DNA of 64,000 nucleotides from an uncultured Desulfobacterales bacterium. GTDB taxonomy: Bacteria; Desulfobacterota; Desulfobacteria; Desulfobacterales; CAJINA01. The notes below the pieces were generated by a model. That model saw nothing but the letters and a program-made list of their open reading frames with translations, ran no database searches and was not told the origin of the DNA. Numbering within the stretch: position 1 is the first letter of the stretch; the number at the start of each line of letters is the position of its first letter. Both the position numbers and the translations under genes were made by a program. Where the stretch lies: the NCBI GenBank assembly GCA_964636125.1, contig CAZWPX010000023.1, positions 1,010-65,009 of the forward strand, in the 5' to 3' direction. Positions 11,070-63,667 of the stretch are shown one piece after another.

Positions 11070-11082
11070 TCACAGGGGACCC

Positions 11083-13392: not shown

Positions 13393-13450
13393 ATGATGCC
13401 GGCCACAGACACAAGCGTCTGCCAAAAGGCGTGGAAGAATATTAACGCAG

Positions 13451-13481
13451 GTCAGGGTGCGAGCGCAGCTAGTTCCCTGAC
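13451..13481 (+). repeat. Conserved intergenic hairpin, copy 1
   Basis: GTCAGGG-tgcgagcgcagctagtt-CCCTGAC. A second copy with the same loop is at 39808..39838. Confidence 0.5.
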
Positions 13482-13543
13482 AGAAGCACACAAACGGGGA
13501 ACCGGGAACCTTGAACCCGGAACCCCGACTCACTAGAGGATCT

Positions 13544-45147: not shown

Positions 45148-46707
45148 CTATTCCTGATCGAGCACATTCCTCACCATTTTCAGTAGATCCTCCCCCAGAT
45201 AGGGTTTGGAAAGAAACCCCCGGGTCTGAGCTTCGATCTGCTCCCAGCTCAATGTCTCGGGTTTAGTGGCCGAGGTAAGAACCACCTTCACGCCTGGATC
45301 GATCTGCAGCAACTCCTGCAGGCATCTTTCGCCCCCCATATTCGGCATGATCAAATCGAGCAGGATCATATCGATCCGGTTTTTTTCCTCGCGGTACAGT
45401 TTCAGGGCGTCTACCCCGTCCTCCGCCGTCAAAACACTGTAGCCAGCCATTTCCAGGCGCCGTTGCCCAAATAGTCGCATGGACGCCACATCATCCACCA
45501 GCAGAATTGTTTCGCCGCCGGTTTGAACGACATTCGTTTTTTTCTTCTCTACCGCCTTCACAGATCGGGGCGCTGCCGGCAGGAAAATTTTGAACAGGGC
45601 CCCTTTCCCCAGGACGCTCTTGCAGGTGATGAGGCCGTCATGATTCTGTATAATGCCGTACACCATGGCCAGGCCCAGACCGGTACCCTTGTCCGCCCGT
45701 TTGGTGGTAAAAAAAGGATCGAAGATCTGTTCAAGGGTCTCTTTGGCCATGCCCTGGCCGGAGTCGGCCACGCTGATGCAAACATAGGCTCCCGGAACCA
45801 GGTTGGGCTGCGACTTGCAGTAATCCGGGGTGAGGGTGACACTGGCGGTCTGGATGATCAGCTTTCCGCCGTCCGGCATGGCATCCCTTGCGTTGTTGAA
45901 GAGATTCATGAGCACCTGACCGATCTGGCCGGCATCGGCAGCCACCGGGGGCAGCGCTTCCTCGAGATTCAGGATCACCTCCAACTCGCTGGCTATTCCG
46001 TTTTTCACGAGACCGTGGAGCTGACGGACCTGCTGATTCAGATCGATCAGTTTTTTGATGCTTTCCAGTTTCCGACTGTAAGAGAGCATCTGCTGCACGA
46101 TATCGACACCCCTCTGGCAGGCATCAAAGATTGTATTTAATTCAGGATAGCCGGGGTCGTCGTGGCTATGACGGATCATGAGAAGTTCGGTCGAGCCCTG
46201 GATGGCTGCAATCAAATTCTTGAAATCATGGGCGATGCCGCTGGCCAGGGTCCCCACAGCTTCCAGTTTCCGGGCTTGCTGGAGCCGTTTTTCGAGCTGC
46301 CTGCGCTCGTTCGTCAGGCGGACCGCCCGGAGCATGTACCGCACCCGCTGTACCAGGATCATCCATTCGATCGGTTTGGTGATGAAGTCGGTGGCGCCGG
46401 CTTCATAGGCCCGGCTGATCGATTCGACATCCTCCAGGGCCGTGACCATGACCACCGGGATTAAATTTCCGCCCGGCAATTCGCGGATCGCCCGGCAGGT
46501 ATCGTAGCCGTCCATCTCAGGCATCATCACATCCAGCAGCACAATCGCCGGCTTCAACCGCTTGACCGCCTCCAGGCCTTCGACGCCGTTCACAGCTTCA
46601 GACACCGAAAAGCCCGCCTGTTGTAAGGACACTCGGGCGACTTCGCGGAGAATGGTATCATCATCGACAATCAGGATCTGGGACCGGGATTCCTTTTTGG
46701 GGGCCAT
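45148..46707 (-). CDS. Hybrid histidine kinase: REC-HisKA-HATPase-REC
   Basis: The N-terminal receiver has ILIVDDD...[12 protein letters not shown]. The H-box is [18 protein letters not shown], the G-box is DSGQGM...[12 protein letters not shown], and the C-terminal receiver has ILLVDD...[12 protein letters not shown]. Confidence 0.9.
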
Positions 46708-50100: not shown

Positions 50101-51311
50101 CCGGCACCAAGGTCATGACCGGCGCCGCGGTCAACGATGCGCCCACCGCGACGAACCTGAGTGCCCCGGAGAGCTACACCGAGGACACGGCGCTCAATCT
50201 GACCGACATCGTGGTCACTGATGTGGACAGTGCCACTGTCACGGTGACCCTGACCTTGTCGGATCCGGCGGCCGGCTCCCTGAGCACCGGCACATCCGGT
50301 GCGGTGACCTCGACCTTTGCGGCCGGGGTGTGGACCGCCTCGGGCGCCCTTGCCGATGTCAACACCCTGCTGGCCGGCGTCACCTTCACCCCAACCGGGG
50401 GCTACGCCGGTGACTTTACCATCGCCACAAGTGCGAACGACGGCACGGCACCGGTGGTGACGGGAGTAAAAAATGTGTCCCTGGCAGCCGCTGCCGATCC
50501 AACGCCGCCGACGCTCCCTGCGGAAGACAATGATCCAGATCCGGTAACTCCGCCCGAGCCCGATCCAGAGACACCTGAAGACGAATCCGCACCCGCGGAC
50601 GTCGCAGAAGAGGCTCCTGCCGAGGCCGAAGCCGAGGCCTTGAATGAAGATGATTCGGGTGATACCGTAACGGCGGTTCCACCGACAGCCGCCGGAGCCG
50701 TGTCTTCACAACAGCGGCTTGCCTCGAACACGCTGCGTGGATTTATACAACGGTCCCTCCGGGGCCTGAGCCTTGAACAGGTTGCGGAGATCGACCTCAA
50801 AGAACTCCGGGAAATGACGGCCGAGACCCAACCGGCCTGGTCTGTTGCCCAGACCCGGGCAGCATCAATGACCTTTGGTACCCGGCTGACTGATTTGGGC
50901 ATTCGGACAGTTCTCGCATTCGATTTCCTGGAAAACTCGCTGGACGGGCTCCAACAAGAAGCAGAGGAAGAGATCGCGCTCAACCAGGTGGTTGCAAGTT
51001 CCGCCATTGCCGTAACGACAGGCCTGTCCGTGGGGTATGTGGCCTGGCTGCTGCGAAGCGGCGTGCTGCTCAGTTCTTTGCTGTCTTCCATGCCGGCCTG
51101 GCGGATTCTGGATCCGTTGCCTGTGCTTGCAGGAAAACTGGACGATTTCGAGGAGACGGACGAAGAATCCCTGGAGACCATCATCGAGCGGCCGTCGCCG
51201 CCTTCCGCCGATGACGACCCGAATGATGCATCTGCCTCTGTGGACGTTGCGGACGAAGTCGTGAAGGACGTGAAAGACGTGAAAGACGTGAAAGACGTGA
51301 AGGAAACGTAA
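47190..51311 (+). CDS. Giant repeat protein: N-terminal LEPR-XLL motif, DUF4347, cadherin-like repeats, acidic/Pro-rich linker, C-terminal TM segment
   Basis: FEALEPRLLLSA lies at 47328..47363. The DUF4347-like block runs ELVVIDGGIQD...DAVHFVSHG...LLFYGCDLAAGEEGQALL...GADVTASDDDTGH..LGGDWDLEY. Repeats of ~120 aa are bounded by VNDAPT. The segment SAIAVTTGLSVGYVAWLLRSGVLLSSLLSSMPAW is hydrophobic. No RTX GGxGxD array was seen. Confidence 0.9.
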   Translation: MNKWFKTALKTMCDRLGAGTRGVPRPVPGKAPNAGPRQDSFPAGIHFEALEPRLLLSASGDGIVAGVAVQAAPSSEHAAIEAENFQFNQLNQSLSTNLLHTTEIKESGLSQGNSTPQGSNPVSHPADATTTNNENQLVSSIPAESVDILTSIESHVLDTVLERSELVVIDGGIQDTDTLINDLLADRDDGRTIEVVIIDPEQDGFEQVSDLLATRQGLDAVHFVSHGTDRGVKLGDTWLYPGNLDDYAGDIAGWKDSLAAEADLLFYGCDLAAGEEGQALLASLGELTGADVTASDDDTGHALLGGDWDLEYRAGDLETAVAFSAELQHHWDGLLAPPTLDLDVNNSSGAGGNDYQLTYTEGDVATAIADTDSDVADADSTTFDHVTLSVSGLLDGNAEEMVLDGDTFALSTAVAGQNTSGLKYTVTVTAVPGSGTATMTITKQGGGTFTEVETEALIEEIKYRHADDNPSDGNRTIDMTVNDGSVDSAAARTTINVDPVNDAPTLTVFSAPIKTSSQDETVTITFGDLTTQGDEADVDGTVDAFIVKAVSSGTLLIGASKGSAAAWAAGTNDTISGLDKGFWTPVSGATGTLNAFTMVVEDNSGAESATPVQAQVSVTANNVPTLTAFAAPIDTTAEDTQVDITFAELVAQGDEADVDGTVDGFVVKAVTSGTLLIGTDAGSATIWAAGSNDTIDAANNAYWTPDSDANGTLNAFTAVALDNSGAESATPVQAQITVTAVNDAPTATNLSAPESYTEDTALNLTDIVVTDVDSATVTVTLTLSDPAAGSLSTGTSGAVTSTFAAGVWTASGALADVNTLLAGVTFTPAINYNSNFNIATGVSDGAAPAITGTKVMTGAAVNDAPTATNLSAPESYTEDTALNLTDIVVTDVDSATVTVTLTLSDPAAGSLSTGTSGAVTSTFAAGVWTASGALADVNTLLAGVTFTPAINYNSNFNIATGVSDGAAPAITGTKVMTGAAVNDAPTATNLSAPESYTEDTALNLTDIVVTDVDSATVTVTLTLSDPAAGSLSTGTSGAVTSTFAAGVWTASGALADVNTLLAGVTFTPTGGYAGDFTIATSANDGTAPVVTGVKNVSLAAAADPTPPTLPAEDNDPDPVTPPEPDPETPEDESAPADVAEEAPAEAEAEALNEDDSGDTVTAVPPTAAGAVSSQQRLASNTLRGFIQRSLRGLSLEQVAEIDLKELREMTAETQPAWSVAQTRAASMTFGTRLTDLGIRTVLAFDFLENSLDGLQQEAEEEIALNQVVASSAIAVTTGLSVGYVAWLLRSGVLLSSLLSSMPAWRILDPLPVLAGKLDDFEETDEESLETIIERPSPPSADDDPNDASASVDVADEVVKDVKDVKDVKDVKET
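49405..50392 (+). repeat. 2.7 copies of a 100%-identical 360-bp (120-aa) tandem repeat
   Basis: A line-by-line comparison shows 49405-49764 equals 49765-50124, which equals 50125-50392 (a partial third unit). Two older, diverged ~120-aa units precede it (~48700-49400). Confidence 0.95.
51261..51305 (+). repeat. 9-bp microsatellite (gtgaaRgac)x5 encoding (VKD)n at the C-terminus of the giant protein
   Basis: gtgaaggac gtgaaagac gtgaaagac gtgaaagac gtgaaggaa. Confidence 0.9.
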
Positions 51312-51314
51312 TTT

Positions 51315-54239
51315 ATGGGCAGGTTGAACGTCAAATTCCGCGTGGTTGCAGGCATGGTCGGTCTGGTGATCAGCCTCATCTTTCTGGCCCTCTATCTCGG
51401 CATCATTCCGGACCGGATCGGCGCGGTGCGAAAAGGACGCACGTCCCTCGCCGAAGCCCTTGCGGTACACAGCGCGGCCCTGGTGATGACGTCCGACTTT
51501 CAGCGCCTGAAAGCCGATCTGGACCTGATTTCAAAAAGAAATCCCGGTCTGCTTTCCCTTGCCCTGCGACGGGCAGATGGCCGCAGCACGATTTCGATCG
51601 GCGATCACGACGGCCAGTGGCAACCCATGCAAGAAAACTTCACGAAAGCCAACCAGATCCGGGTCCCCATATCCGACGGCAAGCAAAACTGGGGGCAGCT
51701 GGAGCTGCGATTCAATCCCCTGCAGGACCAGGGGCTCAAGGGAATCCTCCAAACACCATGGGTCCAGATCGGGCTGTTTCTCGGGATAGGATGCTTTGTC
51801 ACCTTTTACCTGTATCTGGGCAGAGTGCTTCGCCAACTGGACCCCTCCCAGGCCATCCCCGGCAGGGTGCGCGCCGCCCTGGACACCATGGCAGAGGGGT
51901 TGCTGGTCGTTGACCCGAAGGAACAAATCGTGCTCGCCAACAAGTCTTTCGCCGACCTGTTTCAAAGATCACCGGATAAGTTTCTGGGTCACAAGGCCGG
52001 AGAACTGCCCTGGATCGACACGGAGGGGAATAAGATAGAAAAAGAAAACCGCCCGTGGATCCAGGCCCTGAAACAGGGGAAGCTTCAGAGGAAGCAAATG
52101 TTGCGGCTGCAGGTTTCGGCCGACGAGTGGCGGACCTTCAATGTCAACTGCGCGCCGGTATTGGGTTCTGCGGAAAAGCCTGCGGGGGTACTCATCAGCT
52201 TCGACGATGTAACCCAACTCGAGAAAAAAGAGATCGAACTTCGCAAATCCAAGGAAGAAGCCGAAACCGCCAACCAGGCAAAGAGTGTGTTCCTGGCCAG
52301 CATGAGCCACGAAATCCGCACACCCATGAATTCCATTCTCGGTTTCACGGAGATCCTCAAGCGCGGCTATGCCCGCAGCAAAGAAGAGACCCGCCGACAC
52401 CTCAATACCATTCATTCCAGCGGGAAAAACCTGCTGGCCCTGATCAATGACATTCTGGACCTGTCGAAAGTAGAGTCCGGCCGCATTGAGGTGGAAAAAA
52501 CCTGGGACGAGCCCCATCGGATTGCCCAGGAGGTCCTTAAGACTCTGAAAGTCCAATCGGAAGAAAAAGGACTTTATCTCCGATTCAATGCGGAGAGTGC
52601 GCTGCCGCAAAAAATCGAGACCGATCCGACGCGTTTCCGGCAGATTATTTTCAACCTGGTGGGAAACGCCATCAAGTTTACGGAAACAGGCGGTGTGACG
52701 GTCGGCCTGCGCTTTAAGAACAACCGCAGAAGGCCCCTTTTGATTGTCGACATCACCGACACCGGCATTGGAATCCCGAGTGAGAAGATCGGCAGTATTT
52801 TCGACCCCTTCACCCAGGCGGATTCTTCGATAACCCGCCATTTCGGCGGAACGGGTCTCGGCCTTTCCATCAGTCGAAAATTTGCCCGACTGCTGGGCGG
52901 AGATATCCGGGTATCCAGTCAGCCGGATAAGGGCAGCCGGTTCAGGGTTATCCTGGCTACGGGAGACACGACCTCGATTCCTTTTCTCCAACCCGAGGAA
53001 GTGGCCTTGACCCTGGAAGAGACCGCTAAGGCCAAACCTGACCGGTGGCGGCTGAACAGGTCACGCGTCCTGGTGGTGGAAGACGGCGTTGAAACCCGTG
53101 AACTCCTCCGGCTGTTGCTCGTCCAGGCGGGAGTAGACGTGTACGAGGCGGAAAACGGGCTGGAGGGTGTCAGAAAAACCACCACCGAACCCTACGACGT
53201 CATCCTGATGGATGTAAACATGCCGGTCATGGACGGCTTTGCCGCGGCCGGGAAAATGCGGCAGAACGGGGTGAAGTCACCGATCATCGCCATGACCGCC
53301 AACGCCATGAAAGGCTCTGAGCAGGAATGTCTGGCGGCTGGATACTCGGGGTACCTCCCCAAGCCCATCGATATCGACAAGCTCATGCAGATGATGGCGG
53401 ATCTCGTGGGCGGAGACCAGGTCAAGGAAATGGACGATGCGTCCCCCGGCATTCCCGCAATGCCGGAAATCGCTTCCGCGGAAAAGCAAGCAGCACCGCC
53501 GCATCCCCTCGTATCCAGCCTGCCGATCAGCGACCCGGAGTTTCAGAAAATTATTATCCGATTTGAATCCCAGCTTCGCGACAAGCTGAAATCCGCGGTC
53601 CGGGCCCGGGAGCGGGGTGACCTTGCCGAATCGGCTGCCTTCGCTCACTGGCTCAAGGGAGCGGGTGGTACCGTGGGCTTCGCTGAATTTACCGAACCGG
53701 CCCGACAACTTGAACAGCTGGTAAATGAAGGGGCCGATGTATCTGAAATGACCGCGGCATGGAAAGCTATTCGCCGGCTGGCCATCCGCCTTGCTGACAC
53801 TATAGCTGACCTGGCGATATCTGCGGCTACCGGGACCGGAGCAGCAGCATCGCCGACTCCGTCGGAAGCCCCTTCCTCTGCCCACACCGCAGGCACCGCT
53901 GTGACACCTCTGGTTTCCCGCTACGCAGAGCTCCCGGAATTTCAGCCGATTATTCACCATTTCATCGAAACGCTCGATGAAAACCTGTCAAAAATGGAAC
54001 TGGCCTATGTGCAGGAAGATTGGAAACAGCTGGAATCCCTGTCGCACTGGTTGAAAGGGTCAGGTGGTACGGTGGGTTTTGATGCCTTCACAAAACCTGC
54101 AGCGGAGCTCGAAAAATTCGCCAAGGCGCAACAGGCGGACCAGGCCGGAGGAATGCTGGATAAGCTAAAGCGGCTGAAAAACGCAGCCCTGCACCCGGAT
54201 GCAGGTGGACACGGCACAGAGCCGGCATCAATCCTTTAA
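51315..54239 (+). CDS. Hybrid sensor kinase: TM-periplasmic loop-TM, PAS, HisKA, HATPase, REC, 2x HPt
   Basis: It starts 3 nt after the giant gene's stop. The H-box is LASMSHEIRTPMNSILGF, the G-boxes are DTGIGI and GTGLGLSISRKF, and the receiver is VLVVEDG...ILMDVNMPVMDG. Two HPt motifs are present: HWLKGAGGTVGF and HWLKGSGGTVGF. Confidence 0.9.
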   Translation: MGRLNVKFRVVAGMVGLVISLIFLALYLGIIPDRIGAVRKGRTSLAEALAVHSAALVMTSDFQRLKADLDLISKRNPGLLSLALRRADGRSTISIGDHDGQWQPMQENFTKANQIRVPISDGKQNWGQLELRFNPLQDQGLKGILQTPWVQIGLFLGIGCFVTFYLYLGRVLRQLDPSQAIPGRVRAALDTMAEGLLVVDPKEQIVLANKSFADLFQRSPDKFLGHKAGELPWIDTEGNKIEKENRPWIQALKQGKLQRKQMLRLQVSADEWRTFNVNCAPVLGSAEKPAGVLISFDDVTQLEKKEIELRKSKEEAETANQAKSVFLASMSHEIRTPMNSILGFTEILKRGYARSKEETRRHLNTIHSSGKNLLALINDILDLSKVESGRIEVEKTWDEPHRIAQEVLKTLKVQSEEKGLYLRFNAESALPQKIETDPTRFRQIIFNLVGNAIKFTETGGVTVGLRFKNNRRRPLLIVDITDTGIGIPSEKIGSIFDPFTQADSSITRHFGGTGLGLSISRKFARLLGGDIRVSSQPDKGSRFRVILATGDTTSIPFLQPEEVALTLEETAKAKPDRWRLNRSRVLVVEDGVETRELLRLLLVQAGVDVYEAENGLEGVRKTTTEPYDVILMDVNMPVMDGFAAAGKMRQNGVKSPIIAMTANAMKGSEQECLAAGYSGYLPKPIDIDKLMQMMADLVGGDQVKEMDDASPGIPAMPEIASAEKQAAPPHPLVSSLPISDPEFQKIIIRFESQLRDKLKSAVRARERGDLAESAAFAHWLKGAGGTVGFAEFTEPARQLEQLVNEGADVSEMTAAWKAIRRLAIRLADTIADLAISAATGTGAAASPTPSEAPSSAHTAGTAVTPLVSRYAELPEFQPIIHHFIETLDENLSKMELAYVQEDWKQLESLSHWLKGSGGTVGFDAFTKPAAELEKFAKAQQADQAGGMLDKLKRLKNAALHPDAGGHGTEPASIL

Positions 54240-54634
54240 CTATGACGGATTCGAAATCCCGCCTCATCCAGTCGGCATCAATACAGTCGCTGCTTGATGC
54301 AAAAATTATGTCTGCAGTGATTTCTCTGGGAAAAAATCTCGGTATGTTGACCGTTGCCGAGGGGCATTGTGCAGTATGCCGATCTCGAGCACCGAACTTG
54401 AGCTGCTCTTTCACAGCTCGACTCACCAACGACGTGAGCGCGTTCCAGAGGATGGTCGTCCCGAAAAAGATAGGCCGGGTCATCTCGCCCCATAGAGAGT
54501 CTTCTCCCGGTCCACTGAACATGATGATTTTTTCACCGGCAGGCGTTCCCGGGCTGGCCGTATGTTTTTATTATTTATGAAATCAAAAGTGGTATTGTTG
54601 GACAAATGACCTAAAATATTATAAAAGTTGACTC

Positions 54635-55489
54635 ATGATTGCCAAATTCAAATCAAGCCTGTTTCTGATAGCTGTCATCGGGCTCCTGGCTGTCAGCCCC
54701 GCCGTCTCCCATTCGCTGGAAGTTCAGGCGGTAACCATTCCCAGCGCGGACGTCACGCTTTCCTTTGTGGTTTCCGGAAAAATCGCAGAAATTCTCGTCA
54801 AAGAAGGCGACAGTGTGAAAAAGGGTGCCCTGCTGGCTGCGTTGCACGATGATCCTGAACGAATTCAAACCGAGCAATTGAAGGTTCAGGCCGCGGACAT
54901 GACCCGTATCCTGTCGGCAAAAGCGGAACTGGCCCAGAAAATAGTGGACCTGGAAAAGCTCGATGCGGCCAGGAAAAAGGGTGCGGTCAGCGACTGGGAA
55001 GTCGCACATATGAAGCTGAGCGTTCGCATGGCGAAGCTGGCGCTCCAGGCGGCGACAATCGAACATGAGCAATCTCAGCGCCAGTACTCCCAGGCAGTCC
55101 AACAGCTCGAGCGCATGCGCATCGTGTCCCCGATTCCGGGGCGCGTGGAAAAGGTCTCCATTGAGGCCGGAGAAGGGATTGAAAAACTCGGACCGGTGGT
55201 TCAACTGGTCAGGACCGATCCGCTCTGGCTCGATGTCCCGGTCCCCCTGCCCCAGGCAAAGCAGCTGGCCATGGGGCAACGGGCCGCGGTCCGGTTTCCG
55301 GGTGATCCAACCGGTAAATCAACGGATGGTCGGATTGTCTACATCTCGTCCGTCGCAGATGCGGCCAGTGACACCCTGCGGGTCCGTATCGAAGTGGGCA
55401 ATCCTTCCGATCGTCCGGCAGGAGAGCGGGTGACCGTTGGCTTTCCGCTAATTCAAACCGGCAAGGTTGGGGACACTTCCCAAAATTGA
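54635..55489 (+). CDS. HlyD/RND-type periplasmic adaptor (membrane fusion protein 1)
   Basis: The N-terminal signal/anchor is SLFLIAVIGLLAV. It has a lipoyl-like half (VSGKIAEILVKEGDSVKKGALLAAL), a coiled-coil hairpin, IVSPIPGRVEKVSIEAGE and a beta-barrel tail. Confidence 0.85.
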   Translation: MIAKFKSSLFLIAVIGLLAVSPAVSHSLEVQAVTIPSADVTLSFVVSGKIAEILVKEGDSVKKGALLAALHDDPERIQTEQLKVQAADMTRILSAKAELAQKIVDLEKLDAARKKGAVSDWEVAHMKLSVRMAKLALQAATIEHEQSQRQYSQAVQQLERMRIVSPIPGRVEKVSIEAGEGIEKLGPVVQLVRTDPLWLDVPVPLPQAKQLAMGQRAAVRFPGDPTGKSTDGRIVYISSVADAASDTLRVRIEVGNPSDRPAGERVTVGFPLIQTGKVGDTSQN

Positions 55490-55494
55490 AGACG

Positions 55495-57312
55495 ATGAAC
55501 GAACTGCAGCAAACCGAAGGGCCTTTCACCAGGGTTCTCACTCGGGTACTTGCCAGGCAGTGCCGACAGGTGCGGGCGGCCGGCGGCGCAATGCTGCAAC
55601 CCGTCGAAGAGAAACGCCTGCTCCTCCTTGCGGCTTTTCCGCAATCAGACACCCAAAACGGGCTTCCCAAATGGCTCTCCCCTGCCCTGAACACCTGCCT
55701 GGAGGTCCTGTCCAGCGGAAAGGCGGCGATTGTGCCGGAATCCCCGCAGCAGGGGGCCGGCGGACAGACCGGGAGCCGGATCCTTGTCATTCCGATTCAA
55801 AAAAAGAACAATGTCCGGGCAGTGGCTGCATTTCTCGTCCCCGAGCAAAACCCCCGGAGGCTGGCGGTTATAGAAAAGAGGCTGGCCACCACCTCCTTTC
55901 TACTGAACCACTGCGAACTGCAACTGACCCTGGAAAAACACCGGAAGGCGATCGATCGCCTCTCCCTCGCGCTGGGTGTCATTTCAGTGTGCAACCAATC
56001 CAGCCACTTCACGAGCACCGCCATGGCCTTGTGCAACGAGCTTGCCGAAAAATTAAGATGCCACCGTGTCAGCCTCGGCGTTCTGGAAGGCCGCTACGTC
56101 CGCGTCCGCGCCATGAGCCGGACCGACACGTTTCACCGGGAGATGAAGCTGACCCAGGACATCGAGGCAGCCATGGAAGAGTGTCTGGACCAGGACCTGG
56201 AAATCATTCGCCCGGCGGCCGCAGATGCCGTCTACGTCAGCCGCGCAGCCGGGCAGCTTTCCCAGCGGCATGGGCCATCCGCCGTGCTCTGCGTGCCGGT
56301 CCGGATAAACGGCGGCGTGGCCGCCGTCATCACCCTGGAGCGATCTTCGGAGCGGCCGTTTACAAGCCTGGAAGAGATCGAGGCCGTCAGGCTGGCTTGC
56401 GACCTGTGCGCCCCGCGGCTGATGGACCTGCGGGAGAATGCGCGGTGGTTCGGCGCCCGCATGGCCGCAGCGGTTCGAAAAAAAGCAGGGACGATTTTTG
56501 GACCGCAACACACGGGATTGAAGCTGGGGGCCGTCCTCATTTTTCTCATCGCAGTGTTTCTTGTGTTCGCCAGGGGGGAGTACCGCGTCGGCGCCCCGTT
56601 TATCTTCGAGGCCTCGATTCAGCAAGCCGTCGTGGCCCCGTTTGACTCCTATATCAAAAACGTTCACGTGGATCCCAGCGACGCGGTAATCGCTGATCAA
56701 ACCCTATTGGGCGAGCTGGAGACTTCCGATTTGAGACTCGAACAGGCCGCGCTCAAGGCACAGCAGCAGGGGCATCGGAAACAACGTGCAGCCTCGATGC
56801 GCGACGGAAAAACGGCCGAAGCCCAGATGGCCGAGGCTCAGATTGACAAGCTGGCGGCTGAAATCCGCCTCATCGAAGGCCATATCAAACAGGCCGCACT
56901 GGTGGCGCCGATTTCCGGGCGACTCGTTTCGGAAGATCTCAAACGGCGTCTGGGAGCGCCGGTGGAAGCGGGCGACATTCTCTTCGAAATCGCCCGCATC
57001 GAATTACTGAGGGCCGAGCTTTACGTGCCGGAAGATTCGATTGCGCTGGTGAATATCGGTCAGGCCGGTGAATTGGCCGCCGTCGGCCATCCGGATCGGA
57101 AAATTCGGTTTGTGGTGGAACGCATCACGCCCCTCGCCGAGGTAGTCAACCAGGTCAATTCGTTCCGGGTGCGGGCCCGTTTGCACGACAGGCCGAAATG
57201 GATGCGGCCGGGCATGGAAGGCCTTGCCCGGATCGATGTAGGGAAAAAACGCTATGTGTGGATCTGGACCCATCGGTTGACCGACTGGCTCAGGATGAAG
57301 CTTTGGCTTTAA
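55495..57312 (+). CDS. GAF-GAF-TM-HlyD fusion (membrane fusion protein 2 with a cytoplasmic sensor module)
   Basis: About 330 cytoplasmic aa carry two GAF-like units (…ALCNELAEKLRCHRVSLGVLEG…VLCVPVRINGGVAAVITLER…). One TM follows (LGAVLIFLIAVFLVFA), then a HlyD coiled coil and VAPISGRLVSEDL. A TTG at 55486 overlapping the upstream stop is an alternative start. Confidence 0.85.
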   Translation: MNELQQTEGPFTRVLTRVLARQCRQVRAAGGAMLQPVEEKRLLLLAAFPQSDTQNGLPKWLSPALNTCLEVLSSGKAAIVPESPQQGAGGQTGSRILVIPIQKKNNVRAVAAFLVPEQNPRRLAVIEKRLATTSFLLNHCELQLTLEKHRKAIDRLSLALGVISVCNQSSHFTSTAMALCNELAEKLRCHRVSLGVLEGRYVRVRAMSRTDTFHREMKLTQDIEAAMEECLDQDLEIIRPAAADAVYVSRAAGQLSQRHGPSAVLCVPVRINGGVAAVITLERSSERPFTSLEEIEAVRLACDLCAPRLMDLRENARWFGARMAAAVRKKAGTIFGPQHTGLKLGAVLIFLIAVFLVFARGEYRVGAPFIFEASIQQAVVAPFDSYIKNVHVDPSDAVIADQTLLGELETSDLRLEQAALKAQQQGHRKQRAASMRDGKTAEAQMAEAQIDKLAAEIRLIEGHIKQAALVAPISGRLVSEDLKRRLGAPVEAGDILFEIARIELLRAELYVPEDSIALVNIGQAGELAAVGHPDRKIRFVVERITPLAEVVNQVNSFRVRARLHDRPKWMRPGMEGLARIDVGKKRYVWIWTHRLTDWLRMKLWL

Positions 57313-57382: not shown

Positions 57383-59566
57383 TTGACGGTGACCGCAACA
57401 CGCCCGACATTTATCGAATCCTGGTACCGCGTGGCCAATTTGTGCCCGAAGCTGCTCCCGGCGGTGAACGTGCACCGCCAGCATTTCCGGGGCGTCCAGT
57501 GGTACGTTCTCCAGAACCCGGCCAACAATGAATATTTCCGTCTCAGCCACGGGGCCTATCACTTCGCCGCGATGCTCGACGGTCGCCTCACCGTGGACCG
57601 GGTATGGCGGACGTGCATGGACGCATTCGGCGACGAGGCGCCGACCCAGGGCGAAGTCGTCGATCTGCTTACCAGGCTCTATGCGGCCAACCTGCTCCAG
57701 GGCGATGTGGCCCCGGACGTGGAAGCGCTGTTTCAGCGGCATCAGAAGCGCGCGTGGCGGGAAATTAAAGGATTTTTTCGCAATTTCCTTTTCATCCGGA
57801 TTCCCCTGTGGGATCCGGATCGATTCCTGGAAAGATGGGCCCCTGTTTTCGGAAAATTCTTCACGGTCCATGGCCTTTTCCTCTGGGTCGGTATCATGTT
57901 AGCCGGGTTGTGGGCGGTCGGCGGACACTTCGGAGACCTGACCCGGCAGGCCGCGGGTGTTTTGAACCCGAAAAACCTGCCCCTGCTGTACGCCGCGCTC
58001 GTCATCGTCAAAGTGTTTCACGAAATGGCCCATGCGTTTGCCTGCAAACAGTTCGGGATGCGGGCGGGAACCGGGGGCGAGGTGCACCGGATGGGGGTGA
58101 CGTTCCTCGTATTCGCACCGCTGCCCTACGTAGAGGCGTCCAGTGCCTGGGCCCTTAGGGACAAATGGCAGCGGATCGTCGTCGGTGCCGCCGGCATGCT
58201 GGTGGAACTGGCGATCGCTGCGATTGCAGGCATTCTCTGGGTCCGGACCGCCGAAGGGGCCACCGTACATGCCATCGCCTACAACGTGATGTTTGTCGCC
58301 AGTGTGTCCACGCTGCTCTTCAACGGAAACCCGTTCCTGCGATACGATGCCTATTACATCCTGCTGGATCTCCTCGAAATTCCCAACCTCGATTCCCGGT
58401 CCAAAGCCTACCTTGCCTTTCTGGCCAAACGTAATCTGTGGAACCTCAAACAGGTCCATGATCCCAGCCACACGCCGGGAGAACGGGGGTGGCTCGTATT
58501 TTACGCCCTGACCGCCATGGGTATCCGTGTGGCCGTGGCAATAGCGATTGTGCTGTTTCTCGGCAGCCAATTTTTTCTGATCGGGGCGGTGGTTGCGGTC
58601 TTCATGGCTGCAACCTGGATTTTCCTTCCCCTGGGAAACTTGCTGCGCTATCTGGCCATCAGCCCCGAGCTTGCCCGGATCAGACCCCGGGCGGTTGTCA
58701 CCAGCGCAGCCGCAGCCGCGGTCCTTCTCGGGGCCGTCGGCCTCGTTCCCATGCCGGAGCGCTTTCGCATCGAGGGTGTGGTGGAGCCGATCCGCTACGC
58801 GGTCATCCACATGAAAGCCGACGGATTCGTCGACGGGTTCCTCGATTCCGGGAAAAAGACCGGTCCGAACGGCCTCCGCCTGCTTACCGCGGTCTCCCCG
58901 ATTCTGGAAACCCGGCGCGATCAGCTGCATGCCGAACGCCGCCGGCTCCAGGTGCGGCGAAAACACGCCCAGGCCCGTGAGACGGCGGCGGTACAGATTA
59001 TCGCAGAAAAAATCGCCGCCCTGGAAGAAAAAATCGCACGCAACCGCCGGGAGATGGCGGATCTGAACCTGCAAGCACCCATTCAGGGCACCTGGGTGGC
59101 CCCGAACATTGACCGGCTCCGGGGGGTGTACCTGAAGCGGGGTCGACATGTCGGGGTGGTCGCAGATCTGGACGCCCTGAGAATCCGAGCCGTTGCCGGC
59201 CAGACAGTGGCGGCAGAGCTTATTCGGGATGCCGGATCCGCTGTCGAGATCAGAGTCAAAGGCAACCCGAGTGCGACCTACGACGGCCGAATCGAGACGA
59301 TCATTCCGGCGGGACAGGAACGGCTGCCGTCTGCCGCCCTCGGCTATGCAGCGGGGGGCTCGACCCAAACGGCCCTGGATGACCCGGAGGGCCGGCAGGC
59401 CTCCGAACCGTTTTTTGAAATCCTGGTGGTTCCGGATATTCCCGAAGGAAGGCGGCTGATGCCGGGGCAGAGCACGGTGCTGCGGTTTGACACCGCCGCG
59501 AAACCACTGCTGGTACAGGCATGGAAAACCATTTTGCAACTTTTTCAGAGGAGGTTTAAAGCCTAA
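57383..59566 (+). CDS. PqqD/RRE-like domain + M50 (site-2-protease-like) membrane metalloprotease + HlyD adaptor, single polypeptide
   Basis: The N-terminus (WYVLQNPANNEYFRLSHGAYHFAAMLDGRLTVDRVWRTCMDAFGDEAPTQGEVVDLLTRLYAANLL) fits the PqqD-like peptide-binding pattern. HEMAH lies at 58019..58033 within a polytopic region. The C-terminal coiled coil plus LQAPIQGTWVAP is HlyD-like. The start is TTG 57383 or GTG 57389. Confidence 0.85.
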   Translation: MTVTATRPTFIESWYRVANLCPKLLPAVNVHRQHFRGVQWYVLQNPANNEYFRLSHGAYHFAAMLDGRLTVDRVWRTCMDAFGDEAPTQGEVVDLLTRLYAANLLQGDVAPDVEALFQRHQKRAWREIKGFFRNFLFIRIPLWDPDRFLERWAPVFGKFFTVHGLFLWVGIMLAGLWAVGGHFGDLTRQAAGVLNPKNLPLLYAALVIVKVFHEMAHAFACKQFGMRAGTGGEVHRMGVTFLVFAPLPYVEASSAWALRDKWQRIVVGAAGMLVELAIAAIAGILWVRTAEGATVHAIAYNVMFVASVSTLLFNGNPFLRYDAYYILLDLLEIPNLDSRSKAYLAFLAKRNLWNLKQVHDPSHTPGERGWLVFYALTAMGIRVAVAIAIVLFLGSQFFLIGAVVAVFMAATWIFLPLGNLLRYLAISPELARIRPRAVVTSAAAAAVLLGAVGLVPMPERFRIEGVVEPIRYAVIHMKADGFVDGFLDSGKKTGPNGLRLLTAVSPILETRRDQLHAERRRLQVRRKHAQARETAAVQIIAEKIAALEEKIARNRREMADLNLQAPIQGTWVAPNIDRLRGVYLKRGRHVGVVADLDALRIRAVAGQTVAAELIRDAGSAVEIRVKGNPSATYDGRIETIIPAGQERLPSAALGYAAGGSTQTALDDPEGRQASEPFFEILVVPDIPEGRRLMPGQSTVLRFDTAAKPLLVQAWKTILQLFQRRFKA

Positions 59567-59567
59567 C

Positions 59568-61556
59568 GTGATCCAGGTACCGAGCATAAGCTGGCGGATG
59601 CTTTCTCAGGAGCCCTCCCGGGTGGAAATTCCCCGAGGCCTGGACAGAGCGTGGCATCGGGCCGCCGGTGCCGCCGGGAGTGTTTCCCTTCGAACAAAAA
59701 GATTTATCCGCCGGGCGGAGGGTATCGTTTCCATGGACAAGCTCTTTGCGCACCTATCCGACAAAGAGTTGAGTAAAATAATCCCGCCCCTGCGGGATCG
59801 ATTTCGCCTTGGCCGGGACACAGCCGAAGATCAAAACCGGGCCTTTGCCATCGTCCGGGAAGTCGCCGGGAGAACGATCGGCATGCGCCCCTTTACGGTC
59901 CAAGTGGCCTGCGGGCTGGCAATGGAATCCGGCTGCATTGCGGAAATGGCCACCGGTGAGGGGAAAACCCTGGCCGCAACCATGCCCGCCGTTCTGGCGG
60001 GCTGGCGCAACCGGGGATGCCACGTGGTGACGGCCAATGAATACCTGGCCGCGCGGGATGCCGGTTGGATGGCGCCTGTTTACCGGTTCTGCGGATTGAC
60101 GGTCGGATGGGTGGCAAACACCATGGGCCCGGAGCAACGGCGGCGGGCCTACGACGCTCACATCACTTACTGCACAAGCAAGGAGATCGCAGCCGATTTC
60201 CTGCGCGACCGTCTTACCCTGGGCCCCATCCGGGGACTTTCTGCAGCGCTTCTGGCGAAACTGGCCGGACGCGGCCCCGACCGGATCAACGGCCTGGTTC
60301 AAAGCAGCCTGGGGTGTGCCATTATAGACGAAGCCGACGCGGTGCTCGTGGACGAAGCGGTCACACCGCTGATCATTTCAGGTTCCGGGCAGAACCCGGA
60401 CCATGCACAAGCCATTGCCGAAGCCGCTCGTCTGGCCGCGAAGCTTGCGCCGGAAAAGGACTACCGGGTAGATCGGCGATATCACGAAATCACCCTGACC
60501 GCAGCCGGAGAGGCCCGGATGGCCGGGATGGCCGAATCCCTTGGCGGCCTTTGGAGAATTTCCCGGCACCGTGAAGAACTCGTCGTTCAAGCGATCACTG
60601 CCCGGGAATTTTTTGTTCGGGACAAGCAGTATGTCGTCGACAATCAGACGGTGGTCATCATCGATGAATTCTCAGGGCGGCTCATGCCCGACAGGACCTG
60701 GCGTGACGGTCTCCACCAGGCGATCGAGGCAAAAGAGGATCTCGAGATTCATCTGCCCAGGGAAACCCTGGCCCGGATCAGCTTCCAGCGTTTTTTTCGT
60801 CTTTACGGGAAGCTGTCCGGAATGACGGGAACCGCGGCAGAGATTCGAAATGAATTCTGGCAAATTTACCGTCTTCCGGTGGTCGTCATCCCGCCCCGGC
60901 GCGCCTGTCAACGGTCCCTGCGACCGGATCGCATATTTTCAAATAAAGATGCGAAATGGAGGGCGGTCATCGATGAAATCCGCAGCGCGCACGAAATCGG
61001 GCGGCCGGTCCTGGTGGGGACCCGCAGCGTGGCAGCCAGCGAGTCTCTTGGCCGGCAGTTAACCGTCGAAAAGCTGGATCACGAGGTCCTCAATGCCGTC
61101 CGGCATGACGCCGAGGCGAGGATCATCGCCGACGCCGGCCGAAGCGGGCGCATTACCGTCGCCACGAACATGGCCGGGAGAGGAACCGATATCCGCCTGG
61201 GCCCCAATGTAGCCGAGCTGGGGGGACTGCATGTGGTCGCCACCGAGCTTCACGAAACCCGCCGGATCGACCGGCAATTATACGGCCGGTGCGCCCGCCA
61301 GGGCGATCCCGGCAGCGCCCGGGCTTTTGTGAGCCTGGATGACGAATTGCTGCAGCAGCACGCACCTCCGGTCTGGAAAAAAACGGGGTCCGGCACTGGA
61401 GACGGAGGCCGGGAAATCACTTCTGTCTTTTCCCGCCGACGGATCGAACGCGCTCAGCGCCGTGCTGAGCGGGCCGCTTTTCACCGGCGCAGGGAAGTGC
61501 TTCACACAGACCACTGGCTTGACGAACACCTGGGATTTGCGCTTAAAGAAATCTAG
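59568..61556 (+). CDS. SecA-like ATPase, C-terminally truncated paralogue (NBD1-PPXD-NBD2 + first scaffold helix only)
   Basis: It is collinear with E. coli SecA. EMATGEGKTLAA is the Walker A motif (59955-69). Other matching motifs are VVTANEYLAARD, IIDEADAVLVDEAVTPLIISG, RTWRDGLHQAIEAKE, FFRLYGKLSGMTGTA, ATNMAGRGTDI, GGLHVVATELHETRRIDRQLYGRCARQGDPGS. It ends ~40 aa into the scaffold helix (about 650-660 aa, against ~900 for SecA). Start is GTG 59568 or ATG 59598; the track start at 59487 overlaps the previous gene. Confidence 0.9.
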   Translation: MIQVPSISWRMLSQEPSRVEIPRGLDRAWHRAAGAAGSVSLRTKRFIRRAEGIVSMDKLFAHLSDKELSKIIPPLRDRFRLGRDTAEDQNRAFAIVREVAGRTIGMRPFTVQVACGLAMESGCIAEMATGEGKTLAATMPAVLAGWRNRGCHVVTANEYLAARDAGWMAPVYRFCGLTVGWVANTMGPEQRRRAYDAHITYCTSKEIAADFLRDRLTLGPIRGLSAALLAKLAGRGPDRINGLVQSSLGCAIIDEADAVLVDEAVTPLIISGSGQNPDHAQAIAEAARLAAKLAPEKDYRVDRRYHEITLTAAGEARMAGMAESLGGLWRISRHREELVVQAITAREFFVRDKQYVVDNQTVVIIDEFSGRLMPDRTWRDGLHQAIEAKEDLEIHLPRETLARISFQRFFRLYGKLSGMTGTAAEIRNEFWQIYRLPVVVIPPRRACQRSLRPDRIFSNKDAKWRAVIDEIRSAHEIGRPVLVGTRSVAASESLGRQLTVEKLDHEVLNAVRHDAEARIIADAGRSGRITVATNMAGRGTDIRLGPNVAELGGLHVVATELHETRRIDRQLYGRCARQGDPGSARAFVSLDDELLQQHAPPVWKKTGSGTGDGGREITSVFSRRRIERAQRRAERAAFHRRREVLHTDHWLDEHLGFALKEI

Positions 61557-61600: not shown

Positions 61601-63667
61601 ATGATTAAACGCTATGGTATATGGGTTGCCGCTGTTCTTTCGATTTTCATCACCATTTCCGTTGCCGGGGGGGAGACCTGCCAACCGATCCTGAACATCC
61701 TGAAAAGCCAGGAATGGAAGCATCGCGACACCAGGGGGGAGATCCATCTCGGCAAGGTCGCGACCCTGCTATATCCCGCCTATACGGTCGCAGCAACCGA
61801 CCGTTACCGGCCGCTCCTCGAGCAGTTGTCCGCGGCCCTGAAAACGCCGGTCAGAAAAGAATACCGGGTCGTTTTGAAGGGATATACAGATTCCCTCGGT
61901 TCACTGGTGGTCAACCAGCGCATCTCCCTGGAACGCGCCCAGGACCTGAAAAAATTGCTGACATCGGATCCATCCATGGCCCTCGACGCCAAAAGAATCC
62001 AAGTAGAGGGCCTTGGGGAGGCCGACCCGGTGGCCTCCAACCAGACGCTTGAGGGGCGGAACCAAAATCGCCGTGTTGAAATTCACATTTACGGCAATGT
62101 GGGAGAGGACGTACGAACGGTCGCTACGGCACCGCCCGCCCCCGTCCCTGTAGCCATGCAAAAGGGAAAACCGGTTATCGCAGGTGCTTTATCGGATAAA
62201 TCTACGTTGCCGTTGTCAATACCGGGGGCACAGACACCACCGGGGCCGGAGACCGTTCGCCTGTCCCTTTTCGATGCCATCCGCCATGGATTGGAAAAAA
62301 ACCTGGAGATTCGGGTGGTCGCCTTTACCCCGCAGCAGGCGCAAGAGGGCATTGCGGATGCGGAATCAGTCTTTGATCCCGAAATTTTCACGGAGGGAAC
62401 CTTCCAGCGGGATCCGAATCTGCAATCGAGCGTCACCCGGGTCGTCATGGAAGATGACAGCCTCCTTCAGACGGGAATTCGAAAGCCCCTTGGCACCGGC
62501 GGCAGCGTGTCCGGCGCCCTGGCAATGAATTACGGGAATCTGATCAACGCCGAGTTCGATCGAACCTACCGGTACACCTTCGCCCCGACCTTTGAAATCA
62601 GGCAACCGCTGCTGAAAAATATCGGCGGCCGGGAAGAAAAGGCCGCCATCAAGATCGCCAACCATCAAATGGGCATTTCCAAAGAGGCGTTTCGTCGGAA
62701 GGTAATCGACATTGCCACCCGGATCTCCAGAGCCTACTGGCGGCTCTACCTGCACCGGGACTATGTGTTGATCGACCGGCAGAATTTCGAAATGGCCGAG
62801 GAGGTCTACCGCCGGGAAACCGTCCGGGTCAAAGAAGGCCTTTCGCAACAGCTTGATGTCGCGCGGGCCCGAAGCAATGCCGAAAGCCGGCGGGGAAACC
62901 TGATTAAATCGAAAGAGCGGTTAAAGGTGGGCACGGACCAGTTAAAGCTCTTGATCAACTGGTCGAATCTGAACATCGACTCGCAGGTAAATATCTTACC
63001 CATCGATGAACCGAGCGCAGAGCCCCTTGATGTGAGCGAAGAAGAAGTCGTTGAAAAAGCGTTCCAGCATCGCCCGGAACTGTTGCAGGCCAAACAGCGG
63101 GTGAGTATCAGTAAGGTCGAAGAAGACCTTTCGCAGCATCTGAAACTGCCGACCCTGGATGTATTCGGGCGGTATGCCGTCAGCGGGTACGGCAGGGAGT
63201 TCTCGGACGCGGTTGACGATACGTCCGTCAACGATGAAGATGCCTGGGCCGCCGGCCTGAACTTTGAATATCCGATCGGCAATCGATCGGTAGTGGCCAA
63301 GGCCCGCATGAAAACGCTCGCGCGCCGTCAGTCGGAAGAACAGGTCGCCCGCCTGCGAAACCAGATCAAACAGGAAATCAAGGAGGTGCTCTCTGCGATT
63401 GTTTATGCCAAAGGTAGAATCGAGTCCACTCAAATAGCGATGGAATCCGCCCGGAGTGTGGTCGAAGGTGAATTCGTACGGTTCGAAATCGGTCAGACGA
63501 CCAATGTGGAACTTCTGCGGGCGCAGGACTCGCTGGCCGCCACCAGCCGCAGTTTCATACAAGCGATTGTGGATTACAATATTGCACTGGCCGAACTGAA
63601 AAGGGTCAAGGGCGAGCTGCACGAGGGGTTGTCGATCGATGAACTCGAAAAGCAAGCCGGAAACTGA
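61601..63667 (+). CDS. OmpA-like peptidoglycan-binding domain fused to a TolC-family outer-membrane channel
   Basis: It has a signal peptide. The OmpA_C pattern is VVLKGYTDSLGSLVVNQRISLERAQDL...GLGEADPVASNQTLEGRNQNRRVEIHIY. Two OEP repeats follow (LSLFDAIRHGLEKNLEI... and ...IVDYNIALAELKRVKGEL). Confidence 0.9.
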   Translation: MIKRYGIWVAAVLSIFITISVAGGETCQPILNILKSQEWKHRDTRGEIHLGKVATLLYPAYTVAATDRYRPLLEQLSAALKTPVRKEYRVVLKGYTDSLGSLVVNQRISLERAQDLKKLLTSDPSMALDAKRIQVEGLGEADPVASNQTLEGRNQNRRVEIHIYGNVGEDVRTVATAPPAPVPVAMQKGKPVIAGALSDKSTLPLSIPGAQTPPGPETVRLSLFDAIRHGLEKNLEIRVVAFTPQQAQEGIADAESVFDPEIFTEGTFQRDPNLQSSVTRVVMEDDSLLQTGIRKPLGTGGSVSGALAMNYGNLINAEFDRTYRYTFAPTFEIRQPLLKNIGGREEKAAIKIANHQMGISKEAFRRKVIDIATRISRAYWRLYLHRDYVLIDRQNFEMAEEVYRRETVRVKEGLSQQLDVARARSNAESRRGNLIKSKERLKVGTDQLKLLINWSNLNIDSQVNILPIDEPSAEPLDVSEEEVVEKAFQHRPELLQAKQRVSISKVEEDLSQHLKLPTLDVFGRYAVSGYGREFSDAVDDTSVNDEDAWAAGLNFEYPIGNRSVVAKARMKTLARRQSEEQVARLRNQIKQEIKEVLSAIVYAKGRIESTQIAMESARSVVEGEFVRFEIGQTTNVELLRAQDSLAATSRSFIQAIVDYNIALAELKRVKGELHEGLSIDELEKQAGN

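Follow-up and report, generated by a model that had tools for sequence, protein, structure and literature searches.

A conserved, ABC-less gene cassette beside giant LEPR-XLL proteins, with a three-part fusion of an RRE-like domain, a site-2-protease domain and a periplasmic adaptor

Type I secretion systems (T1SS) are defined by an ATP-binding cassette (ABC) transporter and a C-terminal signal, and export runs in the C-to-N direction. Giant LEPR-XLL proteins, which reach more than 12,000 amino acids (aa) and rank with the largest known from bacteria, are frequent in environmental and symbiotic species. For two LEPRxLL giants of Chlorochromatium, Cag_663 and Cag_665, no known transport signals and co-expression with a recently acquired secA have been reported, and the supplement of the same preprint contains no information on Cag_1507 or Cag_1676 (10.64898/2026.03.19.712371). 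Giant proteins of the Omnitrophota have been reported to embed SecA DEAD/PPXD (preprotein cross-linking domain) regions, also without scaffold and wing, and a cassette of M50-adaptor, SecA-like and TolC genes is not described there (10.1101/2023.11.21.568195). In this study, a stretch of 64,000 nucleotides (nt) from an uncultured Desulfobacterales bacterium (contig CAZWPX010000023.1, positions 1,010 to 65,009 of the forward strand; hereafter the window) was analysed, with the focus on a gene near its 3' end that encodes a fusion of a peptide-recognition domain, an intramembrane protease and a periplasmic adaptor. No description of this fusion or of its gene neighbourhood was found in the searchable literature, in which the two preprints above were the only relevant items. 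The fusion is one subunit of a conserved gene cassette and not a stand-alone protein. We consider it rather probable, at slightly better than an even chance, that the fusion receives the signal, cleaves the leader and acts as an adaptor subunit in a TolC-dependent exporter of LEPR-XLL giants that has no ABC protein and is driven by a SecA-like ATPase.

The open reading frame (ORF) at 57383-59566 (+) was present in the window and had been called from a TTG codon. Almost all of its 120 closest database relatives are 725 aa long and start two codons 3' of this TTG, and an AGG-rich, Shine-Dalgarno-like stretch lies upstream of GTG 57389. The true start is therefore probably GTG 57389, which gives a protein of 725 aa, and all residue numbers are counted from this codon. 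The gene product was confirmed to be a three-part membrane protein composed of a peptide-binding domain resembling the recognition element (RRE) of ribosomally synthesised and post-translationally modified peptides (RiPPs), an intramembrane zinc protease of the site-2 protease (S2P) type, and a periplasmic adaptor of the membrane-fusion protein (MFP) type. Its features, with transmembrane (TM) helices numbered from the N-terminus, are:

57389..59566, + strand: RRE-M50-MFP fusion, 725 aa (ORF call from TTG 57383; probable start GTG 57389)
57446..57703, + strand: PqqD/RRE-like winged-helix domain, aa 20-105, predicted cytoplasmic (Pfam, AlphaFold2, Foldseek)
57866..58747, + strand: predicted seven-helix membrane domain with a site-2-protease (M50) core (hydropathy, AlphaFold2, Foldseek, positive-inside rule)
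58019..58033, + strand: HEMAH zinc-binding/catalytic motif in TM2, with H211, E212 and H215 (conservation in relatives)
58322..58348, + strand: NGNPFLRYD after TM4, with N312, N314, P315 and D320, the S2P NxxPxxxxD third zinc-ligand motif (invariant columns)
58754..59563, + strand: predicted periplasmic adaptor (membrane-fusion) module; alpha-hairpin, aa 504-557 (Foldseek, PDB profile match to MacA, Pfam HlyD_D23)

Each of the three modules was matched by Pfam, namely PqqD (PF05402) at aa 41-105 (E 3.9e-4, 21.1 bits; gathering score 23.4), Peptidase_M50 (PF02163) at aa 204-379 (E 5e-6, 26.5 bits; gathering score 27.2) and HlyD_D23 at aa 471-643 (E 9.5e-7, 28.7 bits; gathering score 30). Precomputed matches to PF05402 and/or PF02163 exist for most fusion homologs: PF05402 is assigned to most of the 120 closest relatives and PF02163 to several close homologs, and a relative on an E. 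coli plasmid passes the PF02163 gathering score at 34.7 bits. The structure was predicted with AlphaFold2 from 56 homologs (pLDDT 80), and a second model was built for aa 1-455 alone (pLDDT 72). In the RRE region the prediction gives strands at 27-33, 36-43 and 48-52 followed by helices at 54-61, 69-83 and 87-99, and the adaptor part (aa ~456-725) is predicted to form a lipoyl domain, an alpha-hairpin (helices 504-530 and 532-557) and a beta-barrel. With the aa 1-455 model as query, the top PDB match in Foldseek was the site-2 protease MjS2P (3b4r, E 8e-3, probability 1.0, 230 columns; rmsd high) and the second was the lasso-peptide RRE TbiB1 (5v1u, probability 0.94, TMt 0.56, E 0.66), a structure solved together with its leader. 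The C-terminal part matched MexA (1vf7, E 3.7e-11) and MacA (3fpp, E 5e-11). A profile of 126 relatives compared with the PDB gave PqqD 5sxy (E 0.059), MjS2P 3b4r (E 0.097) and MacA (1.5e-11). Taken together, the module matches exceed chance by far, and the protein can be assigned to the S2Ps (motifs and predicted fold), the RREs (predicted fold) and the MFPs (predicted fold and profile). The three-module fusion of PqqD-like, M50 and HlyD parts, which an earlier note on this DNA had read from the letters alone, was thus borne out by Pfam, NCBIfam, AlphaFold2 and Foldseek; the profile check on its PqqD and M50 regions returned matches for both, each slightly under its Pfam gathering score.

The HEMAH motif lies exactly where it had been placed earlier (58019-58033) and corresponds to aa 211-215. 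Among the 126 relatives, which share 31-72% identity, H211, E212, N312, N314, P315 and D320 are invariant and H215 is conserved in at least 90%; in 78 N-terminal sequences H211, E212 and H215 are all invariant. Because the zinc-binding and catalytic residues are invariant or nearly so, the M50 domain is, on this conservation, kept by selection as an active enzyme. The predicted TM helices span aa 160-191, 194-226 (with HEMAH), 259-286, 292-312, 363-394, 396-424 and 432-451, and a beta-hairpin separates TM2 from TM3. No signal peptide precedes the N-terminal domain, and the short cytoplasmic loops contain 9 K+R residues against 2 in the periplasmic loops. Since seven TM helices follow a cytoplasmic N-terminus, the adaptor module would lie in the periplasm, and since the predicted topology runs N-in, HEMAH and N312-x-N-P-x4-D320 would face the cytoplasmic leaflet; the HEMAH helix is predicted to run from outside to inside, with NxNPx4D at the cytoplasmic end of TM4. 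In the established S2P structures, MjS2P and RseP, the active-site motifs likewise lie toward the cytoplasmic leaflet. The predicted side of HEMAH is therefore compatible with a cytoplasmic leader, a point on which the earlier proposal of leader cleavage depended, as judged from the seven TM helices, the positive-inside rule and the absence of a signal peptide. Canonical S2P motifs would also be expected of a regulatory S2P acting on an unrelated membrane-anchored signalling protein, with the adaptor fused for localisation only, and kinase genes nearby and a FecR-like gene in one locus would suit such a role. We regard it as highly improbable, as no anti-sigma/sigma pair is conserved across the loci, the fusion carries neither a PDZ nor a CBS domain, and the invariant RRE and the fixed synteny with secretion parts would be left unexplained.

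An exhaustive HMMER search for the fusion returned 10,681 cluster representatives (50% identity) at E<=1e-3 and 3,571 at E<=1e-30, and nearly all of the best 150 relatives are full-length (715-730 aa). Mean identity to the window fusion is 44% in the RRE region, 49% in the protease core and 30% in the adaptor; the comparable conservation of the RRE region and protease core fits a conserved ligand. The cluster membership of the family includes one Magnetococcales name, and a scan of genome contigs with the fusion gave a single near-identical fragment from an uncultured Desulfobacterales. Database names for the homologs are inconsistent and include 'PqqD family peptide modification chaperone', 'efflux RND transporter periplasmic adaptor subunit', 'putative peptide zinc metalloprotease' and 'biotin/lipoyl-binding protein'. 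The NCBIfam model daptide_HExxH (NF041824) covers an RRE-type domain and, C-terminal to it, an HExxH protease within the membrane. It matches the fusion at aa 23-413 (E 2.2e-41, 142.3 bits; cut-off 300), and the YydH/LiaK model (NF058609) matches at E 4e-9 (36 bits; cut-off 225). The fusion was not accepted as an equivalog of either, with both scores far under the cut-offs and no daptide-type biosynthetic genes nearby. Best family matches to RiPP proteases, the 'peptide modification chaperone' names and the recurrence of a small conserved DUF3467 protein are what would be expected if the cassette matured and exported a small RiPP or bacteriocin-like peptide and the giant was merely a neighbour. 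This is very unlikely in our judgement: the best scores, 142 and 36 bits, stay far below the 300 and 225 bits required of equivalogs, modifying enzymes (radical-SAM, YcaO, lanthipeptide or other) are not a conserved part of the loci, the DUF3467 protein is of folded size, well conserved and absent from the window, and the conserved partners are the SecA-like motor and the giant LEPR-XLL genes.

The other members of the cassette in the window are:

54635..55489, + strand: small periplasmic adaptor, 284 aa, with an N-terminal signal/anchor (TIGR01730 RND_mfp 2e-35; recurs in the cassette)
55486..57312, + strand: GAF-domain adaptor, 608 aa: GAF in the cytoplasmic N-terminal region, a single TM helix (aa 344-362) and a periplasmic MFP part (Pfam)
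59568..61556, + strand: truncated SecA-like ATPase, 662 aa from a probable GTG start (Pfam SecA_DEAD 3.4e-94)
61601..63667, + strand: outer-membrane factor with an OmpA-like peptidoglycan-binding domain and TolC-like OEP repeats (Pfam OEP 7e-43, OmpA 5e-13)

The probable GTG start of the SecA-like gene is 1 nt past the stop codon of the fusion. The protein aligns to residues 13-607 only of B. subtilis SecA (E 1e-135), and comprises the nucleotide-binding domain NBD1, the PPXD, NBD2 and the beginning of the scaffold helix, with Walker A GEGKT, DEAD and TNMAGRGTDI intact. The wing domain, the two-helix finger and the C-terminal tail are absent; the two-helix finger is the part of SecA that inserts into SecY. 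A complete SecA or SecA2 was considered and rejected, since the alignment is partial and all NCBIfam SecA/SecA2 equivalog scores are under the cut-off. No ABC gene was found by Pfam between 47 and 64 kb of the window, and there is one ABC-like ORF in 87 related loci; the earlier observation that no ABC domain is present thus holds for the fusion and for its surroundings. With no ABC motor at hand, the truncated SecA-like ATPase is the evident candidate to take its place. It might instead feed SecYEG in a two-step route, in which the adaptors and the TolC-like protein carry the substrate across the outer membrane and the M50 domain clears the membrane-embedded leader. The strong similarity to SecA/SecA2 favours this, SecA2-type accessory ATPases that work with SecY exist, and S2P enzymes such as RseP degrade remnant signal peptides. 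Such a route is quite unlikely, given that the wing domain, finger and tail are missing, that the LEPR-XLL segment of the giants is broken by E, R and D residues and has no Sec-type hydrophobic core, and that the fusion of a cytoplasmic RRE to an adaptor speaks for direct hand-over. No secY-like gene appears in the gene tables of the few loci that were inspected; it was not searched for across the 87 loci. As to the outer-membrane factor, its N-terminal peptidoglycan-binding domain is OmpA-like in the window and SPOR in locus L004 (14188-16179), and factors with such a domain are ~650-690 aa long, an unusual length for the TolC family.

The cassette was found in about 90 loci of Desulfobacterota and Alpha-, Beta- and Gammaproteobacteria. 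It consists of the small adaptor, the GAF-adaptor, the fusion, the truncated SecA-like ATPase and the peptidoglycan-anchored TolC-like protein, often together with a DUF3467 protein, and the arrangement is repeated in four loci from Desulfobacterota metagenome-assembled genomes. Synteny was counted in 80 metagenomic loci (34-55% identity) annotated by local ORF calls and BLAST. An adaptor gene of the GAF-MFP or MFP class lies directly upstream of the fusion in 61 of the 68 loci with enough sequence, and the next gene downstream is SecA-like in at least 51 of 61. Some of the apparent absences, several in number, were artefacts of ORF extension, and the clear exceptions are L037, L041 and L053. 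On complete plasmids of Methylosinus sp. C49 and Pseudosulfitobacter, the giant gene (8,848 and 12,738 aa, respectively), DUF3467, GAF-adaptor, fusion and SecA-like genes follow one another in this order. In Methylosinus the small adaptor and TolC genes come directly after the SecA-like gene; in Pseudosulfitobacter an adaptor gene precedes the giant gene, and the stretch inspected showed no TolC gene. The SecA-like gene of Methylosinus (L006 17201-19117, pMSC49a, WP_244635385.1) is labelled 'prepilin peptidase' in RefSeq, which is a misannotation since Pfam gives SecA_DEAD at 1e-103; such genes are labelled 'translocase' elsewhere.

A distant variant (27% identity) without a SecA-like gene has a giant DUF4347 protein, TolC, two adaptors and an M50-adaptor in order. 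It is represented by L010 on the E. coli plasmid NZ_CP081687.1 (54796-69240), where the DUF4347 giant is 4,459 aa, the TolC family protein 639, the adaptors 293 and 449 and the M50-adaptor 710. This variant occurs on IncF plasmids of Citrobacter and of E. coli, in the latter in 24 of 5,426 complete genomes. On the chromid of C. metallidurans CH34 (NC_007974.2) a DUF4347 gene and an M50-adaptor homolog are 14 kb apart. Some close Desulfobacterota and metagenomic loci, L003 (12178-12430), L037 and L041, also have no SecA-like gene, and in them the outer-membrane factor comes directly after the fusion; the motor would be dispensable there or encoded at another place in the genome. The DUF3467 protein (~106-130 aa) is usually encoded between the cargo or small-adaptor gene and the GAF-adaptor gene (L001 16482-16817; L005 7608-7970; L006 12723-13043; L007 12744-13085; about 15 metagenomic loci), and no such gene was found in the window, its last 333 nt included. 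A role of the DUF3467 protein as a SecB-like chaperone found no support: hhalign against E. coli SecB gave a probability of 0.2%, and a PDB profile search lent none either.

The candidate cargo is encoded upstream of the exporter genes:

47190..51311, + strand: candidate cargo, 1,373 aa, repetitive, with DUF4347 and cadherin-like repeats and no Sec signal peptide (Pfam, NCBIfam)
47328..47363, + strand: LEPR-XLL motif FEALEPRLLLSA, aa 47-58, with a basic region before it; candidate export signal/leader (NCBIfam NF012209)

The NCBIfam LEPR-XLL match covers aa 46-59 of this protein, and equivalent giants are encoded in L003, L004, L006, L007 and L010. The neighbouring giants share the N-terminal motif phi-E-x-L-E-P-R-x-L-L-S-A (LEPR-XLL), and every associated large ORF with a readable N-terminus shows a basic stretch and, after it, phi-x-[FL]-E-x-[LMF]-E-[PSA]-R-x-L-[LF]-[SDNT]-[AG]. 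The element is conserved in 13 associated large ORFs; it reads FDTLEPRVLLNA in Methylosinus, LETFEPRVLLSA in Pseudosulfitobacter and FALESRQLFDGA in the E. coli plasmid giant, and it is also found in nine or ten metagenomic loci. The strict pattern occurs in 11 of 2,912 ORFs of the cassette loci, with 0.28 expected from shuffling (50 shuffles, maximum 1 strict match). The earlier note had pointed to the N-terminus of the neighbouring giant as the candidate substrate, and the sharing of this enriched element among giants adjoining the fusion supports that link. Over 72,556 plasmids the genus counts of DUF4347 and fusion genes parallel one another, with 19/18 in Escherichia, 8/8 in Citrobacter, 2/2 in Cupriavidus, 2/2 in Burkholderia and 23/13 in Azospirillum; Phaeobacter, at 40/0, shows that the link is not absolute at the plasmid level. 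With many independent loci across phyla, we are highly confident that the cassette and its LEPR-XLL association are real.

General Pfam and NCBIfam scans of the window cargo gave no RTX family, and its C-terminus consists of a hydrophobic segment and an acidic tail; a cryptic C-terminal signal may nonetheless be present. The segment SSAIAVTTGLSVGYVAWLLRSGVLLSSLLSSMPAWRILDPLPVLAGK and the tail are located at 50985-51131 (aa ~1266-1314) and also occur in the L003 and L004 giants; the hydrophobic segment is common to Desulfobacterota cargo, in which it may be a membrane anchor or sorting element, and absent from alphaproteobacterial and E. coli giants. DUF4347 is located at 47685-48194, directly after the LEPR-XLL leader. 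Seven copies (window, L012, L093, L003, L080, L081, L084) share an invariant [S/G]HG...YGC pattern, with His and Cys ~45 aa apart, and the motifs ADVAAS-D-TG and GDW-LE. Pfam and PDB sequence searches gave no match of DUF4347 to CPD/caspase-like cysteine proteases.

The conserved anchor-like segment of the Desulfobacterota cargo could also be read in terms of retention and release. The giant, exported by the cassette or by another route, would then be tethered by its LEPR-XLL segment at the RRE or the inner-membrane assembly, and cutting by the M50 domain would be a regulated release or would clear jams instead of removing the leader routinely, by analogy with LapG, which cuts the N-terminal retention module of LapA. 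Regulatory functions do accompany the cassette (a GAF domain in the second adaptor, a gene for a hybrid kinase, GGDEF/EAL or EAL genes), and a Vibrio LEPR-XLL giant with a C-terminal RTX region has been reported (PMC10868602). We consider this role unlikely: no ABC exporter was found in the 87 loci, a SecA-type motor is well matched to an N-terminal signal and to threading in the N-to-C direction, and the RRE-M50 modules of RiPP systems are constitutive leader peptidases.

The exporter reading set out at the beginning starts from what was established here: the domain architecture, the conserved motifs, a topology that fits, a fixed gene order without ABC genes, and the LEPR-XLL genes that accompany it. 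What we infer of leader binding and cleavage, export and its direction, motor coupling and stoichiometry would run as follows. The basic N-terminus and LEPR-XLL segment of a giant without a Sec signal would be captured in the cytoplasm by the RRE-like domain, probably as an added beta-strand, in the way RiPP leaders are recognised. The truncated SecA-like ATPase would clamp the unfolded chain and push it in the N-to-C direction; with an N-terminal signal and an N-to-C motor, export could begin during translation, which is attractive for proteins of at least 10,000 aa. The chain would cross an inner-membrane assembly to which each M50 domain contributes seven helices and each of the two other adaptors one; oligomers of the M50 membrane domain are the sole polytopic candidate for an inner-membrane pore. 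It would then enter a tunnel of three adaptor paralogs docked on the peptidoglycan-anchored TolC-like channel. The M50 site, which is predicted to open to the cytoplasmic leaflet beside the RRE, would remove the leader during or after threading, following the logic of the C39 peptidase domain in bacteriocin ABC exporters. By our estimate, it is a little more probable than not that the LEPR-XLL leader is bound and cut by the fusion in the course of export. The GAF, histidine-kinase and c-di-GMP genes nearby suggest that export may be regulated. The earlier note had one protein combine leader binding, leader cleavage and coupling to TolC; architecture and topology agree with this, but the fusion would not act alone. 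Being one subunit alongside two adaptors and a SecA-like ATPase, it requires that interpretation to be enlarged.

Several observations weigh against this exporter reading. The three Pfam matches of the window protein are each slightly under the gathering score, and the structural matches are of modest strength for the RRE part (E 0.66) as well as for the S2P part (E 8e-3). The SecA-like gene is missing from a subtype comprising L003, L037, L041, the E. coli plasmids and C. metallidurans, so the motor is not universal or is encoded elsewhere, and some loci (L001) have no cargo gene within 10 kb. To our knowledge, S2P domains do not act as protein-conducting channels. Because the Vibrio giant is reported to have an RTX region, LEPR-XLL proteins may also use a classical T1SS with a C-terminal signal, in which case the N-terminal motif may have a different role. 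DUF4347 may itself process the giant, as its conserved His/Cys pattern recalls clan-CD self-cleaving cysteine proteases.

The cassette is probably a tripartite TolC-dependent exporter in a new form, and there is a substantial chance that it deserves the name of a new secretion system. The set of parts in this candidate machine has no precedent: an adaptor that carries a RiPP-type receptor and an intramembrane protease, a SecA motor no longer tied to SecY, two further adaptor paralogs (three in all) and a peptidoglycan-anchored TolC. More tentatively, at somewhat less than an even chance, it may represent a previously unrecognised type of Gram-negative secretion, with an N-terminal LEPR-XLL signal, a SecY-independent truncated SecA, an S2P-adaptor platform, a three-adaptor/TolC tunnel and intramembrane removal of the leader. 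It could then, with the same reserve, be the missing export route for LEPR-XLL giants in Proteobacteria, Desulfobacterota and probably other phyla. If this is true, the energisers of TolC-dependent export would extend beyond ABC, resistance-nodulation-division (RND) and major facilitator superfamily (MFS) proteins, site-2 proteases would gain a role in secretion, and the N-terminal signal could be used for engineering the export of very large proteins. Relatives are available in tractable hosts, including the E. coli and Citrobacter IncF plasmids, C. metallidurans CH34, Azospirillum, Rhizobium and Methylosinus.

One further feature lies between the cargo and the exporter genes:

51315..54239, + strand: PAS hybrid histidine kinase, a possible regulator (Pfam; also in L003 and L004)

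The ORF 54242-54580 (112 aa), between this kinase and the first adaptor, was rejected as a gene and is probably non-coding because it has no family matches and an implausible sequence; a response-regulator GGDEF-EAL gene occupies the equivalent position in L004. Further hybrid histidine kinase/response regulator genes (CckA-like; GAF-HK-REC) are located upstream of the cargo gene at 45148-46707 (-) and 41264-43054 (+). A pfa-type polyunsaturated fatty acid/polyketide synthase cluster extends over 3978-22344 of the window, with genes for a 2,363-aa KS-AT-ACP-KR-DH protein, a 2,398-aa KS-KS-FabA-FabA protein and a 546-aa PfaD-like enoyl reductase, and an 872-aa ORF without Pfam matches.

Among the known systems, the peptidase-containing ABC transporters (PCATs), such as the colicin V exporter CvaAB-TolC, resemble the cassette in having an N-terminal leader, a built-in protease that recognises it, an adaptor with a TolC-type channel and no Sec signal. 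In PCATs a cytoplasmic C39 cysteine protease is fused to the ABC protein and the cargo is a peptide, whereas here an intramembrane M50 protease and an RRE are fused to the adaptor, no ABC protein is present, the candidate motor is a truncated SecA and the cargo ranges from 1,000 to more than 12,000 aa. Assignment to the PCATs was rejected, as neither a C39 nor an ABC domain was detected by Pfam or NCBIfam. The T1SS of giant adhesins (LapA/LapBCE, SiiE, MpIBP) likewise combine a giant repetitive surface protein with adjacent adaptor and TolC-like genes, follow the logic of a one-step conduit spanning the envelope and have c-di-GMP-type regulators nearby. The present cassette differs in having no ABC gene, an N-terminal signal-like element, three adaptor paralogs instead of one and a SecA-like ATPase; it was not classed as a T1SS, as the dedicated ABC transporter was not encountered in the 47-64 kb part of the window and the 87 loci hold the single ABC-like ORF. 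The RiPP leader peptidases (NF041824, NF058609) share the PqqD-like domain and the polytopic HExxH protease in the same order, to which the fusion adds a C-terminal TM helix and a ~270-aa periplasmic adaptor, and RiPP-modifying enzymes are not found nearby. With the site-2 proteases (MjS2P, RseP, SpoIVFB) the fusion has in common the TM HExxH, the later NxxPxxxxD, a membrane-reentrant beta-hairpin between them and the fold match to 3b4r; it differs in replacing PDZ/CBS domains by an RRE and an MFP, in having three extra TM helices and in the absence of a site-1 protease or anti-sigma partner. TriABC-OpmH also uses several MFP paralogs per system, and the TriAB fusion 6vej was among the sequence matches of the fusion profile. 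TriABC contains an RND pump and exports small molecules, whereas no RND, ABC or MFS component is found here. Finally, the Omnitrophota giants with embedded SecA-like domains share with the cassette a DEAD motor with a preprotein cross-linking domain, the lack of scaffold and wing, and the tie to giant-protein biology, and the difference is that here the motor is a separate SecA-like protein of ~660 aa within a TolC/MFP cassette.

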